DNA of 64,000 nucleotides from the NCBI GenBank assembly GCA_963813155.1, contig CAWEYG010000003.1, forward strand, positions 288,001 to 352,000, in the 5' to 3' direction. This stretch comes from an uncultured Acidobacteriota bacterium (GTDB lineage Bacteria > Acidobacteriota > Thermoanaerobaculia > UBA5066 > DATFVB01). A model generated the notes under the pieces. It ran no database searches. It saw nothing but the letters and a program-made list of their open reading frames with translations, and was not told the DNA's origin. Made by a program: the position numbers and the translations under genes. Of the stretch, positions 5,717-23,440 are shown piece by piece (positions within the stretch are counted from its first letter, which is position 1; each line of letters opens with the position of its first letter).

Positions 5717-6801
5717 ATGTCAGAGAAAAAACCGGCCGCGGCGGCGATCGCGGAGAGACTGAAGACGGCCCGCGCGAAGCTCGCCCAGTCGGGCGCCGAC
5801 ATGCTCTTCGTGACTCCCTCGACGAATCTTTTTTACCTGGCCGGCATCTCCTTTCACCGCAGCGAGCGCCTCACGGCCGTCCTGATTCCGAAGGACGGCG
5901 ACCCGGTTCTCGTCGTCCCGGCGTTCGAAGAGACGCACGCGCGGTCGATGACGCCGATCGAGCGGATCGTGACATGGCAGGAAACAGAGGACGCGTTCGC
6001 GAAAGCGGCTTCGTTTCTCGGAACGTCGAAAGGCACCCTTCTCGTCGAGCCCTCGACGGCGTTCGACGACGTCGAGAAACTGCTCGCCCACGCCTCCGGC
6101 TGGAACGCGAAGTCGGGAGCGAACGCTCTTCGCCGCGATGCGGATGGTCAAGAGCCCGGACGAGCTCGCGGCGATGCGGCGCGCGATCGAGCTGGGCGTC
6201 GGACGTTTCAAGGCCGCCTTCTCGAAGCTGCGCCCGGGCGTCGCCGAGAAAGAGATTTCCGCCGCCTTCGGCGGCGACAACGTCGTCCAGTTCGGGCCCT
6301 CGGCGGCCGTTCCGCACGGAGAGGCGTCGGAGCGAAAGCTCTCGAAGAACGAAGCCGTCCTCATCGACGCCTGGGACAATCCCGGAAGGGTATTTCTACG
6401 ACATCACCCGTTCGACGTTCTATGGAACCCCGACCGACGAGTACCGCAAGGTCTGGGACATCGTCCACGAGGCGCAGGGGGCGGGCATCGAGGCTGCGCG
6501 TCCAGGAGTTCCGTGCTCGCAGGCGGACGCCGCGGCGCGGCGCGTCATCGAAAAGGCGGGCTACGGCGAGTACTTCACGCACCGGCTCGGCCACGGCCTC
6601 GGCATCGACGTCCACGAGCCTCCGTACATGGTCTCCGGCAACGACATCCTGCTCGAGCCGGGAATGACGTTCACGTCCGAGCCGGGGATCTACCTGCCGG
6701 GCAAGTTCGGCGTGCGGATCGAGGACGACGTCGTCGTGACGGAGAAGGGCTCGGAAGTCCTCTCCCCTCGCCCGTCGAAGCTCGAGCCGATCGAGGCGTA
6801 G
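5717..6801 (+). CDS. Xaa-Pro aminopeptidase, M24 family (frameshifted)
   Basis: Creatinase-like N-terminus; [27 protein letters not shown]; frame changes near 6120 and 6380. Confidence 0.9.
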
Positions 6802-6871
6802 ACTCCAACCCCACCCCGACGCTGGACGCGCCACCCCTCCCCGCATTGCAAGGAGGGGAAAACACCGCAAT

Positions 6872-6954
6872 GTCATTCCCGCGAAAGCGGGAATCGCCCG
6901 GCGCGGGCTCGACCTCACCCGGCCTCACGGCCACCCTCTCCATGTGGAGAGGGT
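6872..6954. repeat. REP-like palindromic elements upstream of intI
   Basis: GATTCCC-type hairpin GTCATTCCCGCGAAAGCGGGAATC (6872-6895) and ACCCTCTCCA-tg-TGGAGAGGGT hairpin near 6933-6954. Confidence 0.55.
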
Positions 6955-7126
6955 AAATCGAGCATTCCCTTTAGTCGCGCCGAAGCCTTCCGACTTCGCC
7001 AAAGCGCTTCGTCGCGACGGCGAGTGGCGAAGGCGGATGTCCCCTTTTTCCGTTTCCGCGATGAGCAGGGCGAGGGAGAACCTCGAAATGCAGGAAGGCG
7101 CAAGAAAGGCGTATACTCTACGAGCC

Positions 7127-8120
7127 ATGCCAGCGGCACCGATTCCTCCCCCGGCGCCCGGCCCGCGCCTGCTCGATCGCGTACGGGTTTGCGTACGTGC
7201 CCGCCACTATTCGATCCGCACCGAAGAGGCCTATGTTGGGTGGATCCGCCGATTCATCCTCTTCCACGGCAAGCGGCACCCGAGCGAGATGGGAGAGCCG
7301 GAAATCAACGCGTTTCTCTCGCACCTGGCGACGGCCAACAAGGTTTCGGCCTCGACCCAGACTCAGGCGCTCTCGGCGCTGTTGTTTCTGTACCGGGTGG
7401 TTCTCCTCAAACCCTTTCCCTCGATCGCCGACCTTATCCGCGCGAAGAAACCGAAACGTCTGCCAACCGTTCTCACCCGGGAGGAAGTCAGAGCCGTGCT
7501 TTCGCAGCTCGACGGTGTCCCGAAACTCGTGGCTGCCGTTCTCTATGGTTCGGGGCTTCGGCTTCTCGAAACCTTACGCCTTCGAGTGAAAGACATCGAT
7601 ACCGAAAGAAACCAGATCACCGTCCGTGACGGGAAGGGCCAGAAAGACCGTCTCACGATGCTGTCGGTTTCGGCCCGAGCAGGGCTCATCGAACATCTCG
7701 AGGGCGTTCGCCGCTTGCACCGCGAGGACCTCGGCCGGGGGGTTCGGAGCGGTTTTTCTCCCAGACGCTCTGGCTCGGAAATATCCCGGCTCCCCGAAGG
7801 AATGGGCCTGGCAATGGGTCTTTCCCGCGGATTCTCGTTCCGTTGATCCTCGGTCACAGGCGGTTGCCCGCCACCACGTTCATGAGCGCCTGATTCAGAG
7901 AGCCGTGAAGCAGGCCGTCCGAAAAGCAAAGATCTCGAAACCGGCAGCCTGCCATACTCTCAGACATTCATTCGCGACACACCTTCTGGAGGATGGCTAC
8001 GACATCCGGACCATCCAGGAGTTGCTTGGCCATAAGGACGTTTCAACCACGATGATCTACACCCATGTGCTCAACCGGAGCGGCGGACTGGGGGTGAGAA
8101 GTCCAATGGACAAGCTATGA
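7127..8120 (+). CDS. intI: Integron integrase (tyrosine recombinase), one frameshift near 7740
   Basis: [25 protein letters not shown]-terminal domain, YGSGLR, IntI-specific patch WQWVFPA...DPRS...[28 protein letters not shown]. Confidence 0.97.
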
Positions 8121-8289
8121 GCCCGTGTCGTTTTGACCGGTCGGGTTTTCGATCTTCGGCGACAAATCTCGTCGTGTTGATCGGTTCGTCAGGTGGCGAG
8201 GAAGTCGAGGGTCTAAAATGGGTTGGATGATAAAAGTGCCAGAAATGCAAATCGACTTAGGCGACAGATTTCGACGCGTTTGCCGAATC

Positions 8290-8316
8290 CTTTGGGACGC
8301 CGAATACATGTTCGCC
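8290..8316 (+). other. attI: attI recombination site, crossover G8310|T8311
   Basis: CGCCGAA-TACAT-G|TTCGCC; the sequence after the crossover (GTTCGCCCACCC) complements the end of cassette 1 (GGTGGGGCGAAC); no attC hairpin upstream. Confidence 0.75.
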
Positions 8317-8326
8317 CACCCGAGCA

Positions 8327-8695
8327 ATGTTTAGGTCCATCGTCTTCCTCGGTCTGGTGGGGTTTATTGTCACGCCTGACGCCAGGGCTCTCCCTTCCGA
8401 CAAGATCACGGTTCCCGAACTGCTCGACCGGGTAGAGCCGCAGACGGTTCCACTGCCGAGTCCCCTCATTATTCGAAACCCGGAACTCAGGCTTCAGATA
8501 ACCGTCGACCCGACCGGCAAGGTCGACGACATCAAGGTGTTACGTTCCGTTCAACCTCGAGTTGATCGGGCCTGGGTGGCAGCGGTGAAACAGTGGCGGT
8601 ATAAGCCCGCGATGCGTAATGGGACGGCCATTCAGTACAAAATTAAACTCGTGACATGGGTCCACGCGGAACGATGGCCACGCGAAGCGAAGTAG
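8327..8695 (+). CDS. Cassette 1: secreted TonB C-terminal domain protein
   Basis: Signal peptide; ITVDPTGKVDDIKVLRS...AAVKQWRYKPAMRNG. Confidence 0.8.
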   Translation: MFRSIVFLGLVGFIVTPDARALPSDKITVPELLDRVEPQTVPLPSPLIIRNPELRLQITVDPTGKVDDIKVLRSVQPRVDRAWVAAVKQWRYKPAMRNGTAIQYKIKLVTWVHAERWPREAK

Positions 8696-8705
8696 TGCGG
8701 GGTGG

Positions 8706-8766
8706 GGCGAACATCGGCGTGCAGCGGATGTCGCTTCGCTCCACCGCTGACGCCGGGTCGTTATGC
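8706..8766 (+). repeat. attC: attC1 (61 bp)
   Basis: GGCGAAC...GGCGT(G)CAGCGG/CCGCTGACGCC stem...GTTATGC. Confidence 0.95.
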
Positions 8767-8789
8767 CACCTAATCGGCGACGGGGGCAA

Positions 8790-9097
8790 ATGACGACGCG
8801 GGAGGATAACTTGCTTTCCGGCCGAGGGCGGTGGGCTCTTGGAGCGATCGCGATCTCCCTCGGGCAGGCTGCTTGGCTCTACAACACGGTCAAAACTGCA
8901 AACATTCTCAACGCGGCGCAGATACGGCCCATCTTGCTTCTTGGTCTAGTGGGCTGGTCTGTCGGCCTTGCCATGGGACTCGCGGGAATCCGAGTCGGCT
9001 CTCCGTCGCAAAACTCGTCTCAGCGCTCGGAATCATTGCAAACTTGGCCGGTGTCGCAGTCACGCTGTGGAAAATGGCGACCTGGTGGGTGGCCTAA
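8790..9097 (+). CDS. Cassette 2: small 3-TM membrane protein (frameshift near 9003)
   Basis: Hydrophobic helices in ORF 8763 frame continue in ORF 8831 frame; ends at the TAA inside attC2 R''; alternative start 8763. Confidence 0.6.
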
Positions 9098-9152
9098 CAT
9101 GCGCGTGCAGCGGATGTCGCTTCGCTCCACCGCTGACGCCGGGTCGTTAGGC
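9092..9152 (+). repeat. attC: attC2 (61 bp)
   Basis: GCCTAAC...GTTAGGC, same internal stem as attC1. Confidence 0.95.
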
Positions 9153-9165
9153 CGCCGAGACTGAT

Positions 9166-9569
9166 ATGCCTTTGAGACCAAGGGATCTGGAGGCGCAGGG
9201 AATCCCGATCACGTTCGAACAGCCAGGCGAGGTGACCGTTCGCGTCGGCCCCTGCTCAGGGCAGAGATTAGAGCGCAAGAAGATCCCTTGGACGGCCGTC
9301 GCTACATCTGTGCTGGCACGATCTTCTTGAAGAACGGGTCGAAGCTTCAGGCAAACTTCGAAATCGAGACGCACAGCTTTGATTTCCTCGACCGCGAGAG
9401 CGTTCAGTGCCTCATCGGCGACGCTTGGTACGGAATCGACGAACCCGAGCTGTGGGCGGTACTCGGCATTTCCCAGAAGGATGGCTTGCCAGATTGCTGG
9501 TTGCCGGATGTCCCACTCGATTACCACGTCCCCGGCCCTTACCCGATGAACTGGAAGGGCAAGAAATGA
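9166..9569 (+). CDS. Cassette 3: hypothetical protein (frameshift near 9287)
   Basis: ATG 9166 MPLRPRDLEAQG...KKIP joins ORF 9288-9569 if one C is added to a C-run. Confidence 0.6.
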
Positions 9570-9576
9570 CCCAGCG

Positions 9577-9637
9577 GCCTAACCCGCGCGTGCAGCGGAT
9601 GTCGCTACGCTCCACCGCTGACGCCGAACCGTTCGGC
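9577..9637 (+). repeat. attC: attC3 (61 bp)
   Basis: GCCTAAC...GTTCGGC. Confidence 0.95.
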
Positions 9638-9654
9638 AACGTTAAGGAGCGTCG

Positions 9655-10030
9655 GTGGCTCAAGAAAAGCTGATCGTGCCCGATGATCGGCCACTGACGA
9701 GCGGTGAGCGTGAGTTGATCACGTGGCTGCTCGATCATGGGTCGGCGGAAGCGGCGGCATATCGCGGCCAGCTGTCGCGGGTTCATGTCGTTTCGAGGTG
9801 TGGGTGCGGCTGTCCGACCGTCGATCTCGCACTTGCCGGAAGCATCAAGCGGTCTGGATCGTCGGCGATCCTGGCCGACTTCACCGGCCGTTCACCAGAA
9901 GGCGTCCTAGTCGGCGTCATGCTTACTGGTCGCGAGGGCGAACTCTCGGAGCTTGAGGTTTATTCAAAGGATGGGGCAGGTCGCCACCTTCGGGGGGCTG
10001 CCCGTGCCGGTGGATCTGGAGTCGGCGTGA
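9655..10030 (+). CDS. Cassette 4: hypothetical protein with CxCGCP motif
   Basis: AAGGAG SD before GTG 9655; SRCGCGCPTVDL; true stop inferred at TGA 10028-10030 after an indel near 9975-9995. Confidence 0.65.
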
Positions 10031-10034
10031 CGTT

Positions 10035-10098
10035 GCCGAACATCGGCTTGCAGCGGACTGCGCCCTGCGGGCTTGCCGCTGAAGCCGGGTCGTTCGGT
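10035..10098 (+). repeat. attC: attC4 (64 bp)
   Basis: GCCGAAC...GGCTT(G)CAGCGG/CCGCTGAAGCC...GTTCGGT. Confidence 0.95.
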
Positions 10099-10103
10099 CG
10101 TCG

Positions 10104-10402
10104 ATGAGTCGCGATGACGGTCAGAAGTTCATCGATCGTTATGACGAGAAGCAGAGTCACAACCTCGACCCCGGATATTTCACGGGCGGTCGCCTGGAGC
10201 CGGTCTTCTTGGCGAGGAGGCCGAATAAATGGGGCTGGACGCTGCTCGTGGGCGGGTTCACGGCACTCGGGCGATCGTGTTGAATCGTGCAGATACGACC
10301 TGGTGGGAAAGTGGTCGTCGGCTCGTCGGCGTCGCTAGTCTCATGATCGTTGCGGGCGTCAAAGCGCGCCGGTGGCCGAATCGACGCGGAGGAAAACCGT
10401 GA
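10104..10402 (+). CDS. Cassette 5: small membrane protein (several indels)
   Basis: ATG 10104 MSRDDGQKFIDRYDEKQSHNLDPGYFTGGRL...WGWTLLVGG; later hydrophobic stretch in other frames; end inferred. Confidence 0.45.
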
Positions 10403-10415
10403 GAAGGTCGAGACG

Positions 10416-10476
10416 ACCGAACATCGGCGTGCAGCGGATGTCGCTGCGCGCCACCGCTGACGCCGGGTCGTTAGGG
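10416..10476 (+). repeat. attC: attC5 (61 bp)
   Basis: ACCGAAC...GTTAGGG. Confidence 0.95.
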
Positions 10477-10487
10477 AGACGGTAACC

Positions 10488-10902
10488 GTGAGAAGTTTCG
10501 TGAAGCCGCTTACCACCATTGTTCGTCGCCGTTGTCCTCACTTCCCTTTTCTGGAATTTGGCTTTCCGCCACGTTCCCGGGTCCATGGTGCTGTTTAACA
10601 TCGGCAGACTGGCCATCGCGGCGTGGGCAGGCTGGCGCGTTGTGTCACTCGGCTCGGGAAGTCTTTCCCAAGCCGCCCTATCCGGTGCGATCGTCTTCTT
10701 GATCGACCATGTGTTCTTGAAGGGTGGGTATTTTCTGGGCGAGGCCGTGCTTACTACCGGCGTCGACCGGCATAAGTACCTCCTCGCGTTCGGCGGCGTC
10801 TGCGTGTCCTATCTCATGTTTGTCGCAATCCCGGTCGGCCTCGCGGTTTGCGGAGGCTTAGCGGCCCGGTCGCGCAAGAGGGCAGAAGATGCGCCTGCCT
10901 AA
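10488..10902 (+). CDS. Cassette 6: 4-TM membrane protein
   Basis: ORF 10519-10902 ends at TAA in R''; GTG 10488 start inferred across an indel near 10512. Confidence 0.7.
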
Positions 10903-10957
10903 CATGCGCGTGCAGCGGACTTCGCTACGCTCGCCGCTGACGCGCAAGGCGTTGGGC
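10897..10957 (+). repeat. attC: attC6 (61 bp, divergent variant)
   Basis: GCCTAAC...GTTGGGC; one base shorter in the loop region and one longer before R' than attC1-type. Confidence 0.93.
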
Positions 10958-10986
10958 AGCCAAAGTAAGGGTGGCGTGGAAAACAT

Positions 10987-11343
10987 ATGAAGTTGAGCAC
11001 TTCTAGGCACGTTCTTGTCGGCTCGGCTAGCCTTGTAGCACTCAGCACTGCAGTTCTGCCGTCGGTCACAGGATATGGGACCACGCTTTTCCAAATCGTT
11101 GTGCTTGGCGCCTGGTCGATTGTTGCACACCTATCCTCTGGAGCCTTCGCTGACCAACATCAGGGCCCGGTGTGGTTCGTCACGCTCATCCTTAATGTGG
11201 TGCTCTTTCTGGTCCCAGCATTGGCGGTCTATGTACCGGGACGAAAGCGTTTGCCGATGTTGACAGTGGTCGTTCTACTCTCTTGGCTGAGCTTCTACCT
11301 CGCATCGCTGTTCTTTCTCTCCCCGGCAACGGATGGACCATGA
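10987..11343 (+). CDS. Cassette 7: membrane protein
   Basis: 118 aa, 3-4 hydrophobic helices, fills the cassette. Confidence 0.8.
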   Translation: MKLSTSRHVLVGSASLVALSTAVLPSVTGYGTTLFQIVVLGAWSIVAHLSSGAFADQHQGPVWFVTLILNVVLFLVPALAVYVPGRKRLPMLTVVVLLSWLSFYLASLFFLSPATDGP

Positions 11344-11362
11344 TGGCAAGCGCGGCCGGGCT

Positions 11363-11426
11363 GCCCAACATCGGCTTGCAGCGGACTTCGGCCTGCGGCC
11401 TTGCCGCTGAAGCCGGGTCGTTGGGC
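11363..11426 (+). repeat. attC: attC7 (64 bp)
   Basis: GCCCAAC...GTTGGGC. Confidence 0.95.
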
Positions 11427-11440
11427 GACGAGAAGCGGCG

Positions 11441-11756
11441 ATGACGGCACCTTCCATCTCGCGAGCTGTTGCCAAAGATGCTATCTGGGCTCGCCTCGGG
11501 CAGCTCCGAGTCGAGGTCTTATGACGATCTGCGGGACCTTGCTGATTCTAAGGAGAACCTCCGAGTCGACGGCGTTGACGCGACACTGTGCGTTTTCCGC
11601 GAGGCCCAGAAGGACGGCTCGATTTGGGTTATCGGGCAGCTCGCCACGCCATCACGACCTTTCCTCGTCGTATTCAGCAGCCGACAACTGTTCGCAGAAG
11701 GTCTTGAAGCGCGCTCTGACGGCTCTGTTCGCGTGCTAAGCGTAGAGGGAACTTGA
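11441..11756 (+). CDS. Cassette 8: hypothetical protein (frameshift near 11506)
   Basis: ATG 11441 MTAPSISRAVAKDAIWARLGQL joins ESRSYDDLRDL... of ORF 11469-11756. Confidence 0.55.
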
Positions 11757-11776
11757 TTACTTCACCGCAAGGCGTC

Positions 11777-11840
11777 GCCCAACATCGGCTTGCAGCGGAC
11801 TTCGGCCTGCGGCCTCGCCGCTGAAGCCGGGTCGTTCGCG
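11777..11840 (+). repeat. attC: attC8 (64 bp)
   Basis: GCCCAAC...GTTCGCG. Confidence 0.95.
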
Positions 11841-11846
11841 CCCCGG

Positions 11847-12209
11847 ATGCAGGTCCTGCGCTCGATGGCGACGCCGGGTCTGGTCTTTCTACTTGTGGCT
11901 TCGCTGGCTTGCGTCAGTGATCAGCCATGCAGCACGCAATCGCCGAAGCCCATGAAGGCCGACTTTGAGGTGCCCCAGAACTTCTGGGATAAACATTCCG
12001 AGGGGAGCGTCACGCTTCGGGTCATCGTTGGGACCGATGGACGCATCACTTCGCCGGAGATTCTCCAGAGCAGCGGTCCAGACTATTCTGCGATCGCCCA
12101 GGAAAGCGTCTTGCGGTGGCAGTATCACCCAGTGATCTGCCGCGGTGCTCCCATTTCCTTCTATCTCACGGTGACGGTCAACTTCACAAAGAGTGGCAAG
12201 AGTGGATAG
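11847..12209 (+). CDS. Cassette 9: TonB C-terminal domain putative lipoprotein
   Basis: LVASLAC lipobox-like; EGSVTLRVIVGTDGRI...SVLRWQYHP...TVTVNF. Confidence 0.8.
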   Translation: MQVLRSMATPGLVFLLVASLACVSDQPCSTQSPKPMKADFEVPQNFWDKHSEGSVTLRVIVGTDGRITSPEILQSSGPDYSAIAQESVLRWQYHPVICRGAPISFYLTVTVNFTKSGKSG

Positions 12210-12221
12210 CCGAGAGCGGGT

Positions 12222-12282
12222 CGCGAACACCGGCGTGCAGCGGATGTCGCTGCGCTCCACCGCTGACGCCGAATCGTTCGAC
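12222..12282 (+). repeat. attC: attC9 (61 bp)
   Basis: CGCGAAC...GTTCGAC. Confidence 0.95.
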
Positions 12283-12300
12283 GGTCGAAGGGAGCCTAGG

Positions 12301-12717
12301 TTGGTGAACGCTGTTCTCGCCTTGGCAGCGGCGGCGATGTTCGGCACCTCGATTCTGCTCGCGCAGGGCGCGACGGGAGTGGGCGAGCCTCAGCCAGTCG
12401 AGATTCGTATTCCGGAATACCCGCTCTGGGCACGGAAGGCCCGTGTCCAAGTGACAATCGTCGTACGCGCCTCGATCGGTCCCGACGGCACCGTTAACCG
12501 TGCCCTCACGGTCAAAGACCCCTTTGCTAACCACAAACTCGACGATCTCCTGGAGGAATCGCTGAGTCGGTGGCGATTTCCCGCAGCTTCCGGACAAGCG
12601 GTTCGGGCTTCAGACATTACGTTTCATTTCGTCTTAGGCGACGAGACTCTCGTTAAGTACCTTCCACCAAACGAAGTCTTCATCGAGGCGACGATACCGC
12701 CCTTGGTGACTCGCTAG
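12301..12717 (+). CDS. Cassette 10: secreted TonB C-terminal domain protein
   Basis: Signal peptide; PEYPLWARKARVQ...IGPDGTV...RWRFP; start TTG 12301 or GTG 12304. Confidence 0.8.
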   Translation: MVNAVLALAAAAMFGTSILLAQGATGVGEPQPVEIRIPEYPLWARKARVQVTIVVRASIGPDGTVNRALTVKDPFANHKLDDLLEESLSRWRFPAASGQAVRASDITFHFVLGDETLVKYLPPNEVFIEATIPPLVTR

Positions 12718-12727
12718 CTATGCGACC

Positions 12728-12788
12728 GTCGAACATCGGCGTGCAGCGGATGTCGCTACGCGCCACCGCTGACGCCGGGTCGTTATGC
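12728..12788 (+). repeat. attC: attC10 (61 bp)
   Basis: GTCGAAC...GTTATGC. Confidence 0.95.
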
Positions 12789-12802
12789 GACTCGAGACCG
12801 TC

Positions 12803-13231
12803 GTGAAGGGTCAACAATCGTTGCGCAATACGCTCGTGGTCGTGGGGGCATACTTCCTGGGGGCGCAGGTCGCCGTCCTGCTCTTCTGGCCGATGTCGCT
12901 ACTCATACCAACCTATTCTTCAGGGGAGGCAACCGCGGAGGCGAGGAAGATGGCGGTTATCGACGCCTTCTACCGTGTACCGATATTCATGGGAGCGGTT
13001 CTCGCAGGCGTCGGCGTCGGTGTGTGTCTTCAAAGTGCTCGGCCTCGGGTGTGGATCGTCGTAACCGGCGTGGTCGTCGCCCTCTGTACCCTATCCTCGG
13101 CTGCGTGGAGTCTTTTCCCTCTTGCCCAGGCGGTTCACCACTTCGAGCGCGCCGTGGCTGCTGGCTTGCTCTCATCGCTCGCATGCCTAATGACCCTCCG
13201 AAAGCGAAAGGCCGTGAATGCGACCGCATAA
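12803..13231 (+). CDS. Cassette 11: 4-TM membrane protein
   Basis: ORF 12785-13231 ends at TAA in R''; start ATG 12785 or GTG 12803. Confidence 0.8.
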   Translation: MKGQQSLRNTLVVVGAYFLGAQVAVLLFWPMSLLIPTYSSGEATAEARKMAVIDAFYRVPIFMGAVLAGVGVGVCLQSARPRVWIVVTGVVVALCTLSSAAWSLFPLAQAVHHFERAVAAGLLSSLACLMTLRKRKAVNATA

Positions 13232-13286
13232 CATGCGCGTGCAGCGGATGTCGCTACGCGCCACCGCTGACGCCGAATCGTTACGG
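13226..13286 (+). repeat. attC: attC11 (61 bp)
   Basis: GCATAAC...GTTACGG. Confidence 0.95.
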
Positions 13287-13686
13287 CTTACCGTAACGAT
13301 TCTGCTCCGCGTCTGCGCTCTGGTGGTTGGGTTCCTAGCGGTTGTCTTTTTGCTGATGCCAGTTTACTTTCTGCGCTATGGGGCGGCGCCGATAGGAGAT
13401 GCAATCGCATCAGTAGGCGTTATCCTCTTGTCCCTCCTCTGTATGCGCTGTTTTCGATGGCTGTGGCGGCGCACTCGTTTTTGGACTGATTCACGATCAT
13501 TTAGTGAGGTCGCAGCACTAGCGGCAGCGATCGCTCTTTGGCCAGTCGCGATATATTTTGAGCGCAGAACGGTCGGAGTAGCAATAGATATCGTGCACAT
13601 GGTCGACGTTTCTGCTTATCGTCGGTGCTTACACCCTAGCTCGTCGTTGCTGGCACCAGAAGGCCAATCACAGTGCTGAGCCCTAA
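13281..13686 (+). CDS. Cassette 12: membrane protein with no clear start of its own (frameshift near 13597)
   Basis: First TM (TILLRVCALVVGFLAVVFLL) begins right after the crossover, in frame with attC11 ATGs; last TM is in another frame ending at TAA 13684-13686. Confidence 0.6.
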
Positions 13687-13756
13687 CAACTGCGCCCAGC
13701 GGACTTCGGCCCGCGGCTTCGCCGCGGCCCTCGCCGCTGACGCTCATCCGTTAGGT
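13681..13756 (+). repeat. attC: attC12 (76 bp)
   Basis: CCCTAAC...CAGCGG/CCGCTG stem with longer terminal hairpin...GTTAGGT. Confidence 0.9.
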
Positions 13757-13766
13757 GCCAAGAAGT

Positions 13767-14114
13767 ATGGCATTCGCTGAGATCGAACTTGCTAAGTACC
13801 GGCGCACTCTCGACGCCTGGATCGAGAAGAATCGACCGCCCCCAGAAGTCCGGCCGAAGCTCGATTTCGGGTACCGCATCGCCGGGCAGAGTGTCGAACT
13901 CTTTGAAATTCGCTCGACCTTCGGCCGCCCCGGTGAGAAGCGCGAGAACCCCTTTGCCAAAGCGACGTGGAACAGGAGCCGTGGCGTCTGGCAAGTTTAT
14001 TGGCAGCGGGCGGATCTCAAATGGCATTCTTATCAACCGGTGAAGGCCGTAGGAACGCTGGATAAGTTTCTCCAGACGGTTCGCGAGGACAAATATGCAT
14101 GCTTTTTTGGCTAG
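13767..14114 (+). CDS. Cassette 13: DUF3024-like protein
   Basis: RPPPEVRPKLD, WQVYWQRADLKWHSY, DKYACFFG resemble DUF3024. Confidence 0.8.
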   Translation: MAFAEIELAKYRRTLDAWIEKNRPPPEVRPKLDFGYRIAGQSVELFEIRSTFGRPGEKRENPFAKATWNRSRGVWQVYWQRADLKWHSYQPVKAVGTLDKFLQTVREDKYACFFG

Positions 14115-14126
14115 GCCCGGCGCGGC

Positions 14127-14187
14127 CCCTAACATCGGCGTCCAGCGGATGTCGCTGCGCGCCACCGCTGACGCCGGGTCGTTGGGG
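14127..14187 (+). repeat. attC: attC13 (61 bp)
   Basis: CCCTAAC...GTTGGGG. Confidence 0.95.
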
Positions 14188-14195
14188 AGCCGAAG

Positions 14196-14762
14196 ATGAC
14201 GAATCGGTCGATCGCCGGTCTCGTTTTCAAGGTCTGGGGAATCATTTGGATCGTGTCGGCGGCATCATCGGTCGGCAGCGTAACGGCGCTCCTCATGGCC
14301 TCCTCGCCGCCCGGACCTGAGAATGTGATGATGCACTGGACCAAGATGTCTTACGTTTTCGGTACAGTGTCACTGCTGGCCGCCGGAATCGCTTTGTCGT
14401 GCTTTGCCAGTCGAATATCCCGCAGTCTTTTTCCGACGGAAGAGCCTGTCCACCTTGATTTCAGCGCGGCAGCGCTTCAAGCCGCTTTATTCGCCGTTCT
14501 CGGAATCCATTTTGCGATCCGTGCTCTTCCTGGGGTCGTCTCCATCGTTTACGTGCTTCGCACGAAGCCATCTTGGGACGCGCAGTCAGCCGCGTCGTAC
14601 GCGTGGGACCGCAAGCGCGAAGCGGTTCTCAGCTCCACCGTGGAGCTAATCGCGGGCGTAACGCTATTCTTCTCCAGCAACGCCCTGAGTAGCCTCTGGC
14701 GTCGGTTGCGCCCGCTCTCGGAAACCCCTCAGCCGGCCGATCCTCCCAAAGAGGCCGAATGA
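14196..14762 (+). CDS. Cassette 14: 4-TM membrane protein
   Basis: 188 aa, four hydrophobic helices, fills the cassette. Confidence 0.8.
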   Translation: MTNRSIAGLVFKVWGIIWIVSAASSVGSVTALLMASSPPGPENVMMHWTKMSYVFGTVSLLAAGIALSCFASRISRSLFPTEEPVHLDFSAAALQAALFAVLGIHFAIRALPGVVSIVYVLRTKPSWDAQSAASYAWDRKREAVLSSTVELIAGVTLFFSSNALSSLWRRLRPLSETPQPADPPKEAE

Positions 14763-14772
14763 GATCGCGGCT

Positions 14773-14833
14773 CCCCAACACTGGCGTGCAGCGGATGGCA
14801 CTTCGCTCCATTGCTGACGCCGGGTCGTTAGGC
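14773..14833 (+). repeat. attC: attC14 (61 bp)
   Basis: CCCCAAC...GTTAGGC. Confidence 0.95.
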
Positions 14834-14838
14834 GGCCG

Positions 14839-15243
14839 GTGAAACGCGGAGGTGGAAAGCTGGTGGGCCTGCTTCTCCTGCCCGCCATTGTCCTGATCGC
14901 CGATTTTGTTGTTCGACAGGTTTTTCATCCATACGGCGCCGCCCGAATTACGTTGAACGTTGTCCACGCAGCGGTTGTTGTCTGGGCAGGATTTCGAATG
15001 ACGAGATCCGGATTCAATATGTCGCAAGCCGCATGGGTCGGTGTAGGTCTTCTATTTTTTGATCTGGTCGTCGTCGCAGGGCCATTCTTCGCAATTAGGG
15101 GCCTGGCAGTTCCAGGTGGTTGGAGGTCAGCGCTAGGCGGCGGCGTGGTTGCTTCGGTGTTCGGTGCTCCCTTGGCAGCAGCACTGGCCGCCCTAGGTGG
15201 GCTCGCCGGGCGAAAATGGAGGCCTACCAGTGCGGCCGTCTAA
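14839..15243 (+). CDS. Cassette 15: 4-TM membrane protein, similar to cassette 6
   Basis: 134 aa; WAGFR...MSQAA and LAALGGLAGR echo cassette 6; ends at TAA in R''. Confidence 0.8.
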   Translation: MKRGGGKLVGLLLLPAIVLIADFVVRQVFHPYGAARITLNVVHAAVVVWAGFRMTRSGFNMSQAAWVGVGLLFFDLVVVAGPFFAIRGLAVPGGWRSALGGGVVASVFGAPLAAALAALGGLAGRKWRPTSAAV

Positions 15244-15301
15244 CATTGGCTTGCAGCGGACTTCGGCCTGCGGCCTTGCCGCTGAAGCCGGGTCGTTCGG
15301 C
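15238..15301 (+). repeat. attC: attC15 (64 bp)
   Basis: GTCTAAC...GTTCGGC. Confidence 0.95.
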
Positions 15302-15317
15302 AACCCAATCTCCGTGA

Positions 15318-15624
15318 TCAGCTGCGGCGTCGCCAGTAGCCCGGGCGCCGCCTCGTGTGCGCGACGGCCCAGACGATCAGGTCGTCGCCTCGTCGCTCGA
15401 AATGGAGAACGTACGGGAAGCGGCTCAGCGGCACCTTGCGGAACGTCGTGGTCCTCGACCTTGGTCGGTGTTCCTGGGAGCATTCCGGAGGCAGCCTTAT
15501 CGACGTAGTCGTCGACCTCCGCCTGAAAATCCACACCGAGCCCCGGTCGGGCATTTTCGTAGCGTGTCGCGGCCGCGAGGTACTCGTCGCGAGCAGCCTC
15601 GTGAAATCGAACTCGCGCGCTCAA
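15318..15624 (-). CDS. Cassette 16: RelE/ParE-family toxin (frameshifted)
   Basis: FHEAARDEY...YENARPGLGVDF and RFPYVL...AVAHTRRRPGYW in two frames. Confidence 0.85.
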
Positions 15625-15857
15625 CCGCGCTTCAGGGCTTTCGAAACTTCGGCCTTGACCGTCTTTCCATCGATCAGGAGCGCCTTATCGGCGTCGGACT
15701 CCCGCACCCGGCTCTCGACTTCGGCGTCCCAGGCAGCCTCAACGCCGGCGTCGGGCTCGCCGTCAAGGCTGGCGATCAGCTCAGAAGCCAGTTTCGCGCG
15801 GTCTTCCCTGGGCAACTTCAAGGCTGTGTCGAGCAGGGTTCCCGCGGATGGGCTCAT
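15621..15857 (-). CDS. Cassette 16: addiction module antitoxin
   Basis: ALKLPREDRAKLASELIASLD...AWDAEVESR; directly upstream of and overlapping the toxin. Confidence 0.85.
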   Translation of the reverse strand: MSPSAGTLLDTALKLPREDRAKLASELIASLDGEPDAGVEAAWDAEVESRVRESDADKALLIDGKTVKAEVSKALKRG

Positions 15858-15886
15858 GACCCTCATTCTAACCCGGCGGGCGAGGT

Positions 15887-15962
15887 GCCGAACATCGGCT
15901 TGCAGCGGTCATTCGCTTTCGCCTTGCTTCGGTCGGCTGCCGCTGAAGCCGGATCGTTCGGG
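15887..15962 (+). repeat. attC: attC16 (76 bp)
   Basis: GCCGAAC...GGCTT(G)CAGCGG/CCGCTGAAGCC...GTTCGGG. Confidence 0.92.
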
Positions 15963-16030
15963 CGGTCGGAAACACGCTGATGGTTAAGCGGCGCAACGCA
16001 GCGATCAGCATCGAGCGACCCGGTCGCTGA

Positions 16031-16288
16031 ATGCAGTTCCTTCGCGAGTTGCGGGATCGAATCCGATCGGGCGAGATCACCTGCACCGTTCGCCTGTGGC
16101 AGCGCTCGCATGTGAAGGTCGGGGGGCGGTACTCGCTACCCCCTGGACACGTCGTCGTGACCGGCACTACCGAGATGTCACTGGACGACATCACGCCGTC
16201 TCTTGCGCGGCGATCCGGATTCGTCGGAGTGGTCGATCTCCTCAAGACGGCGAAGCACGGGCCTGGACCGCCGGGTTTTTCTGATTGA
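16031..16288 (+). CDS. ASCH-domain protein (C-terminus possibly frameshifted)
   Basis: IRSGEITCTVRLW, VKVGGRY, ARRSGF motifs. Confidence 0.7.
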   Translation: MQFLRELRDRIRSGEITCTVRLWQRSHVKVGGRYSLPPGHVVVTGTTEMSLDDITPSLARRSGFVGVVDLLKTAKHGPGPPGFSD

Positions 16289-16339
16289 ATTCCTCTATGA
16301 GGCGGCCGGCAAACGGCGGGCGAGCTGGCGGCCTGCCCG

Positions 16340-16736
16340 ATGAGCGCTCGCGGTGTTCGCGTTTCCGACGCCCGGAAGATGCTCCTGAAGCTTGACGGCG
16401 TCGTCGAAGGCACGTCGTACCGGATGCCTTCGTTCCTCGTGAACGGCCGGTTCTTCGCGCGATTCCGCGACGACGATACGGTCCTGGTCCTGCAGCTCAA
16501 GGCGATCGCCGACCGGGACGTTCTGATGGAGATCGATCCGCAGGCGTTCTTTTTCACCGACGCACTACCGGAACTACCCCGCCGTTCTCGTCCGGCTCGC
16601 CGAAGTCCGGCGGTCGCTCTTGGAAGATGTCGTCAAGGAAGCGTGGCGGCACGTGTCGACCCTTCCTCCGGCCCGGCCGCGGCCGAAACCCGCGCGACCC
16701 CGTCCTCGGAAACCGCGAAAGCCGAAGCTGAACTAG
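16340..16736 (+). CDS. MmcQ/YjbR-family protein (frameshift near 16560)
   Basis: EGTSYRMPSFLVNGRFFAR...DPQAFFFTD then HYRNYPAVLVRL in another frame, TAG 16734-16736. Confidence 0.75.
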
Positions 16737-16746
16737 CCGTCGGCGC

Positions 16747-18643
16747 TCATCTGCGCCCGACTTTCGCGGGATCCGGGATGGGCGCGGGCGCGAGGCAGCC
16801 GCCTCTCCTCGTCGCGCAGCCGCCCGTGGCGCGGCCTCCCAGTTCGCCGCGAGCGCCGCCGCATCGAGCGAGCCGAGCCCCGTCGTCTGGTCGTAGCCCG
16901 CGCCGGAGGAATAGCCGGTGACTCCCGGCACGCTGTTGTCGCCCTCGACGACGTCGTGGAAGACCGCCGCGCCTCCGCGCGCGAACTGGTTCGCGCCGAG
17001 CCGGTAGAGGTTCGGGTTGATGTTGCCCTGCCGCTCGCCTGTCTTCTGGACGATCAGCGCCATGATCCCCGCCATCGAAGGCGTCGAGACGGACGTTCCC
17101 TCCGCTCCGGAGAGGCCGGACGAAGAGGCGGACGCGCCCTGGACGATGAGGTACGGAACGCTCCCGGCCGCCGCGAACGAGATGTCCGGCACCTGTCGCC
17201 GGCCGCCGGCGGCGATGCCGGGAACCCCCTGTTGCCAGGACGGCTGCGGAACAGCGTGCTGGTGCCGCCGCCGGTCGACCAGAGGCCCGAACCGCCGGGC
17301 GTCTTTCCGCTCTCGTTCCACGCGGCTTCGGGAATGTAGGACAGCGCGGAGCCGAGCCGCGCGTCGCTGGAGTCGGCCCAGTACCGGCCCGGGTCGCCGT
17401 GGTCGTCGAACTGGGTGCCGCCGACGCAGACGTCGTTCGGGGTCGTGCACAGCCCCGAGACCGCCCTTCCCGAGCCCTCCGAATCGTCGGCGGTGCTGCA
17501 GGCCGACGCGCCGCTGTCCATGGACGCGACGAACACGGTCATTCCCTGGGCCGCGGCCTGGGCCCAAAGGTTCTTGTACAGCGCGCTCGCCGCGGTGCCC
17601 ATCTCGGCCTCGCAGTTTCCGAAGCTGACCGACACGATCGGCGCCAGGTTCTGGTCCACGATGTACTGCGCGGACAGGTCGATACCGTCGGTCGCGGCCG
17701 TCGACCCGGAGACGACGAGTTTCACGGCCGCGTTCGGGGCGATCGCCCCGGACCACTCCACGTCCAGGTCCGCTTCGAACTCTTCGTACCCGCCGAGATT
17801 GCCCGGCGAAGGCCCGTTGCGCACGAGGACGGGATCGTTCGCGGGAAGGCCGAACAGTTTTCGAAAAGCCGAGACGTCCGCGACGGAGATTTCCGTCCGA
17901 CCCGCGATCGCGATCGTCACGCCGGCCGCCGTCACGCCCGCCGCGTGCAGCGGCGCGACGCCGTAGATCGTCGCGAAGTCCTCGGGAGCGAGAGCGCGGT
18001 CGGCAGAACCGCCGCCGTAAGCGAGGCTTCGGGCAGCGGAGGTTCGATGGCTCATCGGCCGCCGCGAGGCGCTTCCGAGCGAGGCAAGGCCGGCGACCAA
18101 TCCGGAGATTTCGCGGGGCATCGTCAGGGAATCCACTCGAACGGGGCGCTCGCCCTCCGCATTCGAGAACGTGTGGATCCTCGTTCCGAAAGCCGACTCC
18201 ACGCGCGAGACGGGCCCCGAGACGTTGATCCACCCGCGTCCCTGGCCGATCTCGTCGATCGTCAGCCCCTTCTGCTCCAGCCAGGCTGCGACTCGCGACT
18301 TCGTCGTCGGTGATCCCGAAGCGGCGGCCGAATTCCGCCGGCGCGAGCCAGCGGTGATACTCGGCGGAGGCGGGGTGCTGCTGGGCCTCCAGGAAACTTT
18401 CCAGTCTCGCATTCGCCTCGGGCGAACGGGTCAGAACGAGGATCATGCGGTCGAGCGGGGCGTCCAGGGCCGCCGGCCCGAGGTCGACGGCATCGACCGG
18501 GACGGCGATCCTCTCCGCGAGACGAACGGAATCCGCCTTCGAAGACGGCGACGCCGCCGCGGAAGAGTCGCGGGCGACGCGCCCGCGGCGCAGGCCGCGA
18601 CGACGCCCAGAACGATTTTCAGCCGAGTCGGCACAGATCTCAT
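16747..18643 (-). CDS. S53 (sedolisin/kumamolisin) peptidase with pro-domain (frameshifted)
   Basis: EADLDVEW, QAAAQGMTVF, PDIS, GTSVSTP, GYDQTTGLGS; pro-domain YHRWLAPAEFG. Confidence 0.88.
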
Positions 18644-18848
18644 CGGATTCCCCCTTTGCACCTCCCGTGAAAGAGCAGGATCGGGGCCCTCGAGAACGGG
18701 ACGTCCGAACGAAGGCCAACTCCCGGCGAAAGCGGCAGATCGCCGTTCGGGAGAAACCGAGAGGTCGGCTCGCTTCCCGCAGCGGGAGCGGAATTCTGGA
18801 AAGGAGACCCGAGCCTCGCTCGAATAGAATCGAACGCGGGAGGAAACG

Positions 18849-19292
18849 ATGCCCAACACGATCCGTCTTCACCGGGTGCTCCGGACCACGCCCGAGAGGG
18901 TCTATCGGGCGTTCCTGGACCCCGACGCGATGGCGAAATGGCTTCCGCCGAACGGATTCACCGGCAAGGTCCACCAGATCGACGCGAAGGTCGGCGGGAC
19001 CTACAAGATGTCGTTCACGAACTTCACGAGCGGCCAGAGCCACTCCTTCGGCGGAAAGTACGTCGAGCTGGTGCCGAATGAGCGCATCCGCTACACGGAC
19101 CAGTTCGACGACCCGAACCTGAAGGGCGAGATGCAGGCGACGATCACGCTGAAGAAGGTGTCGGTCGGGACCGAGCTCCAGATCGTGCAGGAAGGCGTCC
19201 CGGACCTCATCCCCGCCGAGGCCTGCTACCTCGGCTGGCAGGAATCCCTGACGCTGCTGGCGAAGCTCGTCGAGGCCGAGATCCCGGGCTAA
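18849..19292 (+). CDS. SRPBCC/AHA1-family protein
   Basis: PERVYRAFLDPDAMAKWLPP, CYLGWQESL. Confidence 0.9.
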   Translation: MPNTIRLHRVLRTTPERVYRAFLDPDAMAKWLPPNGFTGKVHQIDAKVGGTYKMSFTNFTSGQSHSFGGKYVELVPNERIRYTDQFDDPNLKGEMQATITLKKVSVGTELQIVQEGVPDLIPAEACYLGWQESLTLLAKLVEAEIPG

Positions 19293-19309
19293 AGGGAACC
19301 CGGCCGTTC

Positions 19310-23440
<4,131 letters not shown>

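Follow-up and report, generated by a model that had tools for sequence, protein, structure and literature searches.

A reverse chromosomal integron from an uncultured Acidobacteriota bacterium: an attI site with probably incidental open frames, in cassette arrays whose stop and start codons suggest translational coupling

We analysed a 64,000-nucleotide (nt) stretch of a contig from an uncultured Acidobacteriota bacterium (CAWEYG010000003.1, positions 288,001 to 352,000; hereafter the window), focusing on positions 8117-8334, which are the 3' end of the integrase gene intI, the attachment site attI and the first cassette of a chromosomal integron of the 'reverse' type. Our conclusion, held at a probability of about 0.6, is that this region is a DNA recombination site carrying incidental open reading frames (ORFs), within arrays that show a translational coupling like that of ORF-11 and of the short ORFs at attC, the recombination sites of the cassettes. 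The conserved entity would be the DNA itself, namely integrase-binding boxes ending in the core ..AATACATG|TT, with G8310|T8311 as the strand-exchange point; the mini-ORFs would not be tied to intI. The attC consensus of this lineage leaves one frame open, the frame in which the crossover G is the third codon base (xxG|TTx, hereafter frame 0), and the stops of the cassettes in that frame sit on or beside their own start codons. We infer that ribosomes may cross the recombination sites in frame 0 and then stop or re-start at the next gene, probably by the same mechanism as described for ORF-11/ORF-18 at the class 1 site attI1 and for short attC ORFs. The ATG at the end of attI, together with an upstream frame-0 ATG-ORF in the window's own family of relatives (f1), may feed this frame for the first cassette, and would not be required for the effect.

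The components of an integron are all present in the window: an integron-type tyrosine recombinase gene, an attC array and an attI with a G|TT crossover. intI lies on the same strand as 16 cassettes, and attI lies 3' of the intI stop, the arrangement that defines a reverse integron. With an attC covariance model built from the window's 16 attC sites, co-oriented attC sites were found 3' of intI in the loci of 23/29 relatives. The array spans 8311..15956 on the + strand, with cassettes of 378-661 nt each and every attC on the + strand; the attC sites (R''-L''...L'-R', GTTRRRY core) are located between 8706 and 15962. An Rfam scan of 6000-20000 at gathering thresholds matched no family, which is why the attC model had to be built from the window's own sites. 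Cassette 1 (8311..8760, + strand) holds a gene for a TonB C-terminal domain protein at 8327-8695 (Pfam TonB_C, 1.8e-11; NCBIfam tonB_Cterm), followed by its attC at 8706-8766.

The attI site (8210..8310) consists of the boxes GGTCTAA (8210-8216), TTAGGCGAC (8257-8265) and GCCGAATCC (8282-8290) and of the core GCCGAATACATG (8299-8310); the corresponding regions of relatives contain repeats of (C)GTCTAA / CCGCCTAA and a core ..CTAATACATG|TTAGGC. In 16/16 cassettes the cassette start is the reverse complement of the R'' box and flank of its own attC. Since the start of cassette 1, GTTCGCCCACCC, matches the reverse complement of its own R'', GTTCGCCCCACCC, we placed the crossover G|TT, where attI ends and cassette 1 starts (8310..8311), between G8310 and T8311. 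A natural junction gives the same position: a soil-metagenome contig (run X2, record 8) is identical to the window over 8185-8312 and beyond that point reads AGGCCGCCGAGACTGATATGCC, with which cassette 3 begins, and therefore in another sample this attI is followed by a different first cassette. The earlier proposal, made from the sequence-only reading of this DNA, that the crossover base supplies the G of ATG 8308-8310 is thus borne out by both the R'' rule and the attI-cassette 3 contig. On that contig the leading positions are not occupied by cassettes 1 and 2, evidence from nature that cassettes turn over at this attI; insertion or excision there may be integrase-mediated, of which the contig is an indirect sign.

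We located the crossovers of relatives by the R'' rule and then sorted the sites into types. Type A attI (..CTAAT(N)ACATG|TTAGGC) was found at 18 loci, corresponding to 16 genomes of families f1 and f3 and the metagenome contig L153, and ATG|TT is invariant in all of them (18/18), whereas the attI boxes vary. Type B occurs in 9 genomes of one genus, with a site that is otherwise almost invariant. There, the three bases before the crossover G vary in nearly every genome (gct, act, ccc, acg, agc, ggt and others; L042-L050); either there is no constraint on these bases, or this genus has a different exchange point or a different way of resolving it. Type C sites, from 12 genomes of family f2, end in ..ATACTA/AGGG/ACTG G|TT, and AAG stands at the crossover in G002, from the window's genus, and in G003. 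Altogether, the ATG is absent at the crossover of 23 resolved relatives. Two of the genomes, G002 and the type A genome G008, are unpublished; without them the figures become 17/17 for type A, 22 relatives without the ATG and 7/21 in the tiling test described below, and the conclusions do not change.

The closest relative of the window's attI is on L153 (780-1028), a contig obtained from a pattern scan of metagenomes that returned three matches; the other two, L151 and L152, were discarded as chance matches within unrelated DNA. L153 is 84% identical to window 8201-8312 at the nt level, and no intI is found in the 1011 nt available upstream. Its first cassette begins cgATGAcg on a frame-0 stop. 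Inside the 84%-identical region an unbroken stretch, cttaggcgacagatttcgacgcgtttgccgaatcc (8257-8296), is identical in the two; it likely represents accessory integrase-binding sites or a promoter.

The reading frame through attC was examined in up to 20 kb 3' of intI from 40 loci. An iterated profile located 698 attC sites, and 560 non-identical cassettes whose start matches R'' in at least 9/12 positions were kept. Frame 0 is open for at least 75 nt through the upstream attC in 227/235 cassettes of type A arrays and 159/167 of type B, and in 47/158 of type C; in arrays with the first two attI types it is the sole frame open through attC. Frame 1 runs into the TAG of GTTAG, and in f1 frame 2 runs into the TGA of the L' box (GCTGA), 13 nt before the G. 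The claim that the attI ATG lies in the frame in which the attC linkers exit is therefore right, yet this agreement is largely forced, because TAG and TGA close the other two frames.

The end point of frame 0 is not forced in this way. In a test that needs no gene calling, we asked how often the first stop falls -6..+12 nt from an out-of-frame ATG or GTG opening at least 60 codons, with frame 2 as control. This was the case for 103/235 type A cassettes in frame 0 against 40/235 in frame 2 (p 3e-10) and for 63/167 against 26/167 in type B (p 7e-6); for type C the difference (40/158 against 31/158) was not significant. These P values are overstated to the extent that the relatives are kin, and family subsets were chosen after inspection. 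Taking cassettes with one dominant ORF whose gene is set one base behind frame 0, we found the first frame-0 stop overlapping the start codon in 29/46 (A), 15/24 (B) and 5/20 (C); the equivalent control, frame 2 relative to genes of the other phase, gives 9/25, 7/21 and 7/22. With one cassette kept per protein cluster (229 clusters of 250), the comparison is 43/68 vs 14/44 (p 0.002). The excess frame-0 stops are located 8-50 nt into the cassette in type A, and up to 104 nt in type B, beyond the recombination site. As the excess is equally strong in type B arrays, whose attI has no ATG, and is lacking in type C with its closed frame 0, we regard it as a property of cassette junctions and not of attI.

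Within the window itself, cassettes 7, 14 and 15 each have a frame-0 stop that overlaps the beginning of their main ORF, and in cassette 2 this stop overlaps an internal ATG (8790) of the ORF. The main ORFs of cassettes 2 and 4 (8763-9164 and 9655-10107) continue in frame 0 across their own attC and end 13-16 nt inside the next cassette, so that their stop codon belongs to the neighbour; such read-through is rare among relatives (type A 5/93, type B 2/63). 'Linker' ORFs that start near the stop of the upstream gene are frequent (A 54/66, B 32/40), a count that has no control and was not used as evidence. Genes of phase 1, for which neither an in-frame fusion nor an ATGA overlap is possible, number 46/185 in types A and B taken together, vs about 62 expected; type C splits 23/22/20 over the phases.

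One could argue that no translation is involved, and that conserved recombination-site sequence together with base composition produces the ORFs, the ATG and the frame-0 statistics alike. Frame 0 would then be open merely because the TAG of R' (GTTAG) and the TGA of L' (GCTGA) close the others, and the uniform phases of the cassette genes would also fit. We consider this explanation improbable, since the excess stops lie at gene starts outside the recombination site, were measured against the equivalent relative frame of other-phase genes, survive protein clustering and disappear in type C. In addition, an A follows the start codon twice as often in phase-2 genes as in others (34/64 vs 26/97 after the first ATG, one cassette per protein cluster, p 0.0009).

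The coordinates of the mini-ORFs described in the sequence-only reading hold throughout. intI ends in ..AAG CTA TGA (stop 8118-8120), overlapped by ATG 8117-8119 (ctATGAgc), which opens mini-ORF 1 (8117..8230, + strand, 37 amino acids (aa)). The stop of mini-ORF 1, TGA 8228-8230, is overlapped in turn by ATG 8227-8229, one of four in-frame ATGs (8218, 8227, 8245 and 8308) of mini-ORF 2 (8218..8334, + strand, 38 aa), which runs across attI in the frame xxG|TTx, overlaps the start of cassette 1 and ends at TAG 8332-8334. This TAG lies just inside the cassette 1 gene, which starts at ATG 8327 (ATGTTTAG). Counted from the crossover ATG, the last part is an ORF of 8 codons (8308..8334, + strand; ATG|TT CGC CCA ...), and its TAG 8332 comes 5 nt after the A of ATG 8327. 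The GAGGG noted before ATG 8218 is at 8207-8211, 6 nt 5' of that ATG, and overlaps the GGTCTAA box; L153 has GGGGG where the window has GAGGG, and the remaining relatives are not alignable there.

To judge this pattern we generated 20,000 versions of 8121-8307 from a first-order Markov model, leaving the flanks unchanged. A first ORF of at least 37 aa appeared in 34% of them and a hand-over to a crossover-frame ATG-ORF in 8.8%; the hand-over was an exact ATGA in 3.7%. The arrangement, found after the fact, is uncommon without being improbable, and is no evidence by itself. Neither mini-ORF belongs to a Pfam family or was found to be a conserved protein-coding partner such as an operon gene would be. 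Mini-ORF 1 has no tblastn match at E<0.4 in 152 loci (910 kb). The sole match of mini-ORF 2 in those loci is L153, with 68% aa identity where the DNA is 84% identical; a 1-nt indel shifts the L153 equivalents of ATG 8218/8227 out of frame, and the residue is changed at all 5 differing codons that we compared by eye. Likewise, the differences between the attI sites of G001 and G004a are spread 5/5/5 over codon positions 1/2/3 in a manual count. Mini-ORF 1, and mini-ORF 2 as a peptide, would accordingly seem to be incidental open frames in G+C-rich non-coding DNA, and mini-ORF 2 appears to follow the DNA conservation of attI only.

It had been proposed that these overlaps form a chain starting at intI, with intI, both mini-ORFs and cassette 1 on one mRNA and the stop-start overlaps (ATGA, ATGA, ATGTTTAG) coupling the integrase to the cassettes. 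The overlaps are indeed present in the window, and the region between the intI stop and cassette 1 contains no terminator-like hairpin in a generic scan; when folded, 8100-8345 does not exceed shuffled sequences in stability (z +0.47). A sigma-70 promoter scan of 6800-9200 returned 0 sites with a generic consensus that may not be the host's. The hand-over by ATGA into a frame-0 ORF recurs in G005. The proposal as a general one did not survive the comparison with relatives. An ATGA at the intI stop occurs in 0/29 of them (0/27 without the two unpublished genomes), so that the overlap is not conserved, and in the window it stems from a synonymous Leu codon (CTA); the -8 ATG common to G001/G004 is a by-product of conserved Asp-Val/Ala codons. 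The intI stop and the crossover are between 18 and 611 nt apart, mini-ORF 1 is without relative, and in the window as assembled ribosomes on intI would stop at 7844-7846, 271 nt before ATG 8117 (see below).

We also asked how often ATG-ORFs tile the interval from the intI stop over the crossover (overlaps of at most 16 nt, gaps of at most 6 nt, second-order Markov shuffles). Overall 7/23 loci do so vs 3.6 expected. By family, the counts outside f1 are 3/9 in f3 (2.09 expected, P 0.23), 1/8 in f2 (0.44 expected, P 0.42) and 0/1 in G002 (0.0 expected, P 1.0). When all start codons are allowed under the same overlap limit and shuffles, the result is 6/14 vs 4.8 (P 0.30); a more permissive version, in which every start codon counted, overlaps could reach 60 nt and the shuffles were first-order (13/14 vs 7.1), was rejected and not used. 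We therefore do not accept a chain from intI in general, and for the window's own family f1 we think it improbable; any co-transcription with intI is putative. A start of the chain at intI is in any case of lesser importance, because it is not conserved and because intI is broken in this assembly.

A comparison of the intI-attI spacers of relatives had been set beforehand as the check on conserved ATG|TT and frame. The first was found within type A, as reported above, and is missing from the 23 relatives without the ATG; the second was not found, as the phase of intI relative to the ATG frame is not fixed (5/7/2 over 14 loci).

A different question is whether the crossover-G ATG is a selected start, alone or within an upstream frame-0 ORF, acting as an analogue of ORF-11/ORF-18, that is, as a coupling ORF or an in-frame start. 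The proposal that attI donates a start codon to incoming cassettes stands in part. The ATG is kept in all 18 type A loci, in two families, at positions that vary in types B and C, and it is kept in arrays whose attC has no AACAT. The mini-ORF that it opens is 4-32 codons long in 15 type A loci, spans the crossover and takes its stop from the cassette, close to the first cassette's start codon; in 11/15 loci the stop overlaps an ATG (ATGA 6, TGATG 2) or a GTG/TTG (3). At the natural cassette-3 junction it reads ATG TTA GGC CGC CGA GAC TGA tATG. In G004b the attI ATG and the first cassette's 168-codon ORF share a frame that no stop interrupts. The N-terminus of that ORF resembles a lipoprotein signal by eye (..VVLFWLVAC). 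Precedent exists in ORF-11/17/18 of attI1, as presented in the available text of PMC8876359.

What does not stand is the generality of the proposal: besides the 23 resolved relatives without the ATG, type B arrays show the stop-start excess in its absence. Moreover, ATGA endings at first cassettes (6/15) are no more frequent than in type A arrays generally (68/235), and an in-frame TAA lies two codons 5' of the attI ATG in 6/15 type A loci. No conserved Shine-Dalgarno sequence precedes the attI ATG among the relatives compared; GGGA lies 10 nt 5' of ATG 8308, and relatives have TTAGG/TTGGG, which is integrase-box-like, or nothing there. Its position fits the attI ATG as an entry point for the first cassette, and we regard its being selected, or being a start codon in use, as possible though doubtful.

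Several observations weigh against our conclusion. First, the two bases before the G are an invariant 'AT' in type A and freely variable in types B and C, and a pure integrase-binding constraint is not an obvious explanation of this. We considered that the ATG might be merely the mirror of the motif AACAT that follows R'' in attC. This holds in f1 (59/67 sites in four other arrays and 10/14 in the window) and fails in four type A arrays of f3 (2/105 sites, 0-1 per array); the ATG is therefore accounted for just in part by a symmetric sequence recognised by the integrase. Second, a frame-0 ATG-ORF of at least 15 codons runs into the attI ATG in 4/5 f1 loci vs 0.78 expected (P 0.0017), in a test that is uncorrected, on a subset chosen after seeing the data and including the related G001 and G004; these ORFs have 21-44 codons in G000, G001, G004a and G005, and G006 lacks one. 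The same count in f3 is 1/11 vs 1.8 expected. Third, tiling from intI in f1, the window's own locus included, reaches 3/5 (1.09 expected, P 0.03), and 4/5 vs 1.48 (P 0.017) with a first gap of up to 45 nt, a signal that is weak since the loci are kin and were singled out once the data had been seen. Fourth, gene starts were called by simple rules, and the phases of cassette genes are near-uniform (65/55/63), which led us to reject a phase preference relative to the crossover.

Part of this evidence would suit a stronger version of the coupling. Frame 0 could be a built-in ribosome conduit through attC, with a stop on each cassette's start; the attI ATG would plug newly inserted cassettes into it, and the small ORFs of f1 may carry ribosomes from intI. 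Promoterless cassettes with poor ribosome sites would then be translated by hand-over whatever their neighbour. We hold this version to be rather unlikely, and prefer the more restrained conclusion of a recombination site with incidental ORFs in arrays with ORF-11/attC-like coupling.

This conclusion has parallels in class 1 integrons, as far as the available text of the sources goes. The small ORFs of attI1 (ORF-11/17/18) have been proposed to pass ribosomes to the first cassette, and the peptide sequence of an ORF-11-like element is not expected to matter (PMC8876359). As in ORF-11/ORF-18, an ATG ORF in the window's attI extends over the crossover and takes its stop from the inserted cassette. 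ORF-11 is described there with a start well upstream, GGAG 8 bp before the ATG and its end at the TAG of GTTAGGC; the window's ORF differs in that its start codon holds the crossover G, in having no conserved canonical Shine-Dalgarno sequence and in being chromosomal and reverse-oriented. It is closer to ORF-18 as described, with ATG TTx xxx through the core and a stop in the cassette leader or on the start codon. Several f3 loci and G006 have, instead of a frame-0 one, an ATG-ORF in the frame closed by the TAG of GTTAGG, which is the ORF-11 arrangement. The likeness of the window's attI to attI1 is one of layout. Short attC ORFs, in turn, relieve the block by the attC hairpin through termination-reinitiation, a finding credited to Jacquier et al. 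2009 in the accessible parts of PMC8876359 (and in the reference list of PMC11511950). The present arrays would resemble them in translation over the recombination site and re-start at the next cassette's gene. In the descriptions available, such ORFs are single cases from mobile class 1 arrays; here the property is a statistical one, seen over 402 cassettes from 21 arrays (the window and 20 loci), with the frame open in 95-97% of attC and its stop set on the start that follows.

Reverse ('unusual' or inverted-integrase) integrons have been described in Treponema denticola, Chlorobium, Blastopirellula and others, according to the accessible parts of PMC6557892 and PMC4889954. The window shares with them the transcription of intI in the direction of the cassettes and an attI after the 3' end of intI. 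It differs from those of Treponema denticola, Chlorobium and Blastopirellula in host lineage and attI sequence, and the likeness is one of arrangement only. Full-text searches on coupling in integrons gave us no account of a start codon that includes the crossover base, and none of a frame-specific stop-start excess in chromosomal arrays; the relevant matches were class 1 work and one review.

The integrase gene of the window calls for a comment, as the sequence-only reading had missed that it is split. Its N-terminal frame (7127..7846, + strand) matches TIGR02249 positions 1-188 with 237.9 bits, as well as Pfam Phage_int_SAM_4 and Phage_integrase; homology extends to about 7738, and the frame continues to a stop at 7844-7846. 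The C-terminal frame (7746..8120, + strand, stop TGA 8118-8120) matches TIGR02249 positions 193-315 with 207.8 bits and is 66-77% identical to 29 relatives. Between them, a +1 frameshift at a run of six G (7735..7740, + strand) breaks intI in this assembly: the intI products of 4 relatives (276-348 aa from the first Met) align in frame 2 as far as ~7762 and from ~7726 onwards in frame 3, and most relatives have open frames of 320-390 aa. The shift may be a real mutation or an assembly error; the contigs from three soil DNA runs, which cover small shares of the window, do not span 7735-7740. Short intI frames are also seen in G008 and G011 (179 and 147 aa). Conversely, in 4 f3 relatives (L013, L015, L021 and L026) the intI frame extends ~45-60 codons beyond the usual C-terminus, ending 18-54 nt 5' of the crossover in the three with a located crossover (L015, L021 and L026). 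Finally, the genome G004 contains two reverse integrons (L033 and L034) with near-identical intI ends and attI sites; the second is the one whose attI ATG shares the frame of the 168-codon first-cassette ORF.

According to the accessible text of PMC4889954, attI is undescribed for most integrons; a usable attI consensus with its crossover is now available for a group of reverse integrons. Translation has recently been shown to shape the expression of whole cassette arrays (PMC11511950, in the part available), and the frame-0 pattern described here may bear on the arrays of chromosomal integrons. A frame kept open through the recombination sites, with its stops on the start codon that comes next, would offer a position-independent way of expressing the hundreds of promoterless cassettes of chromosomal integrons.

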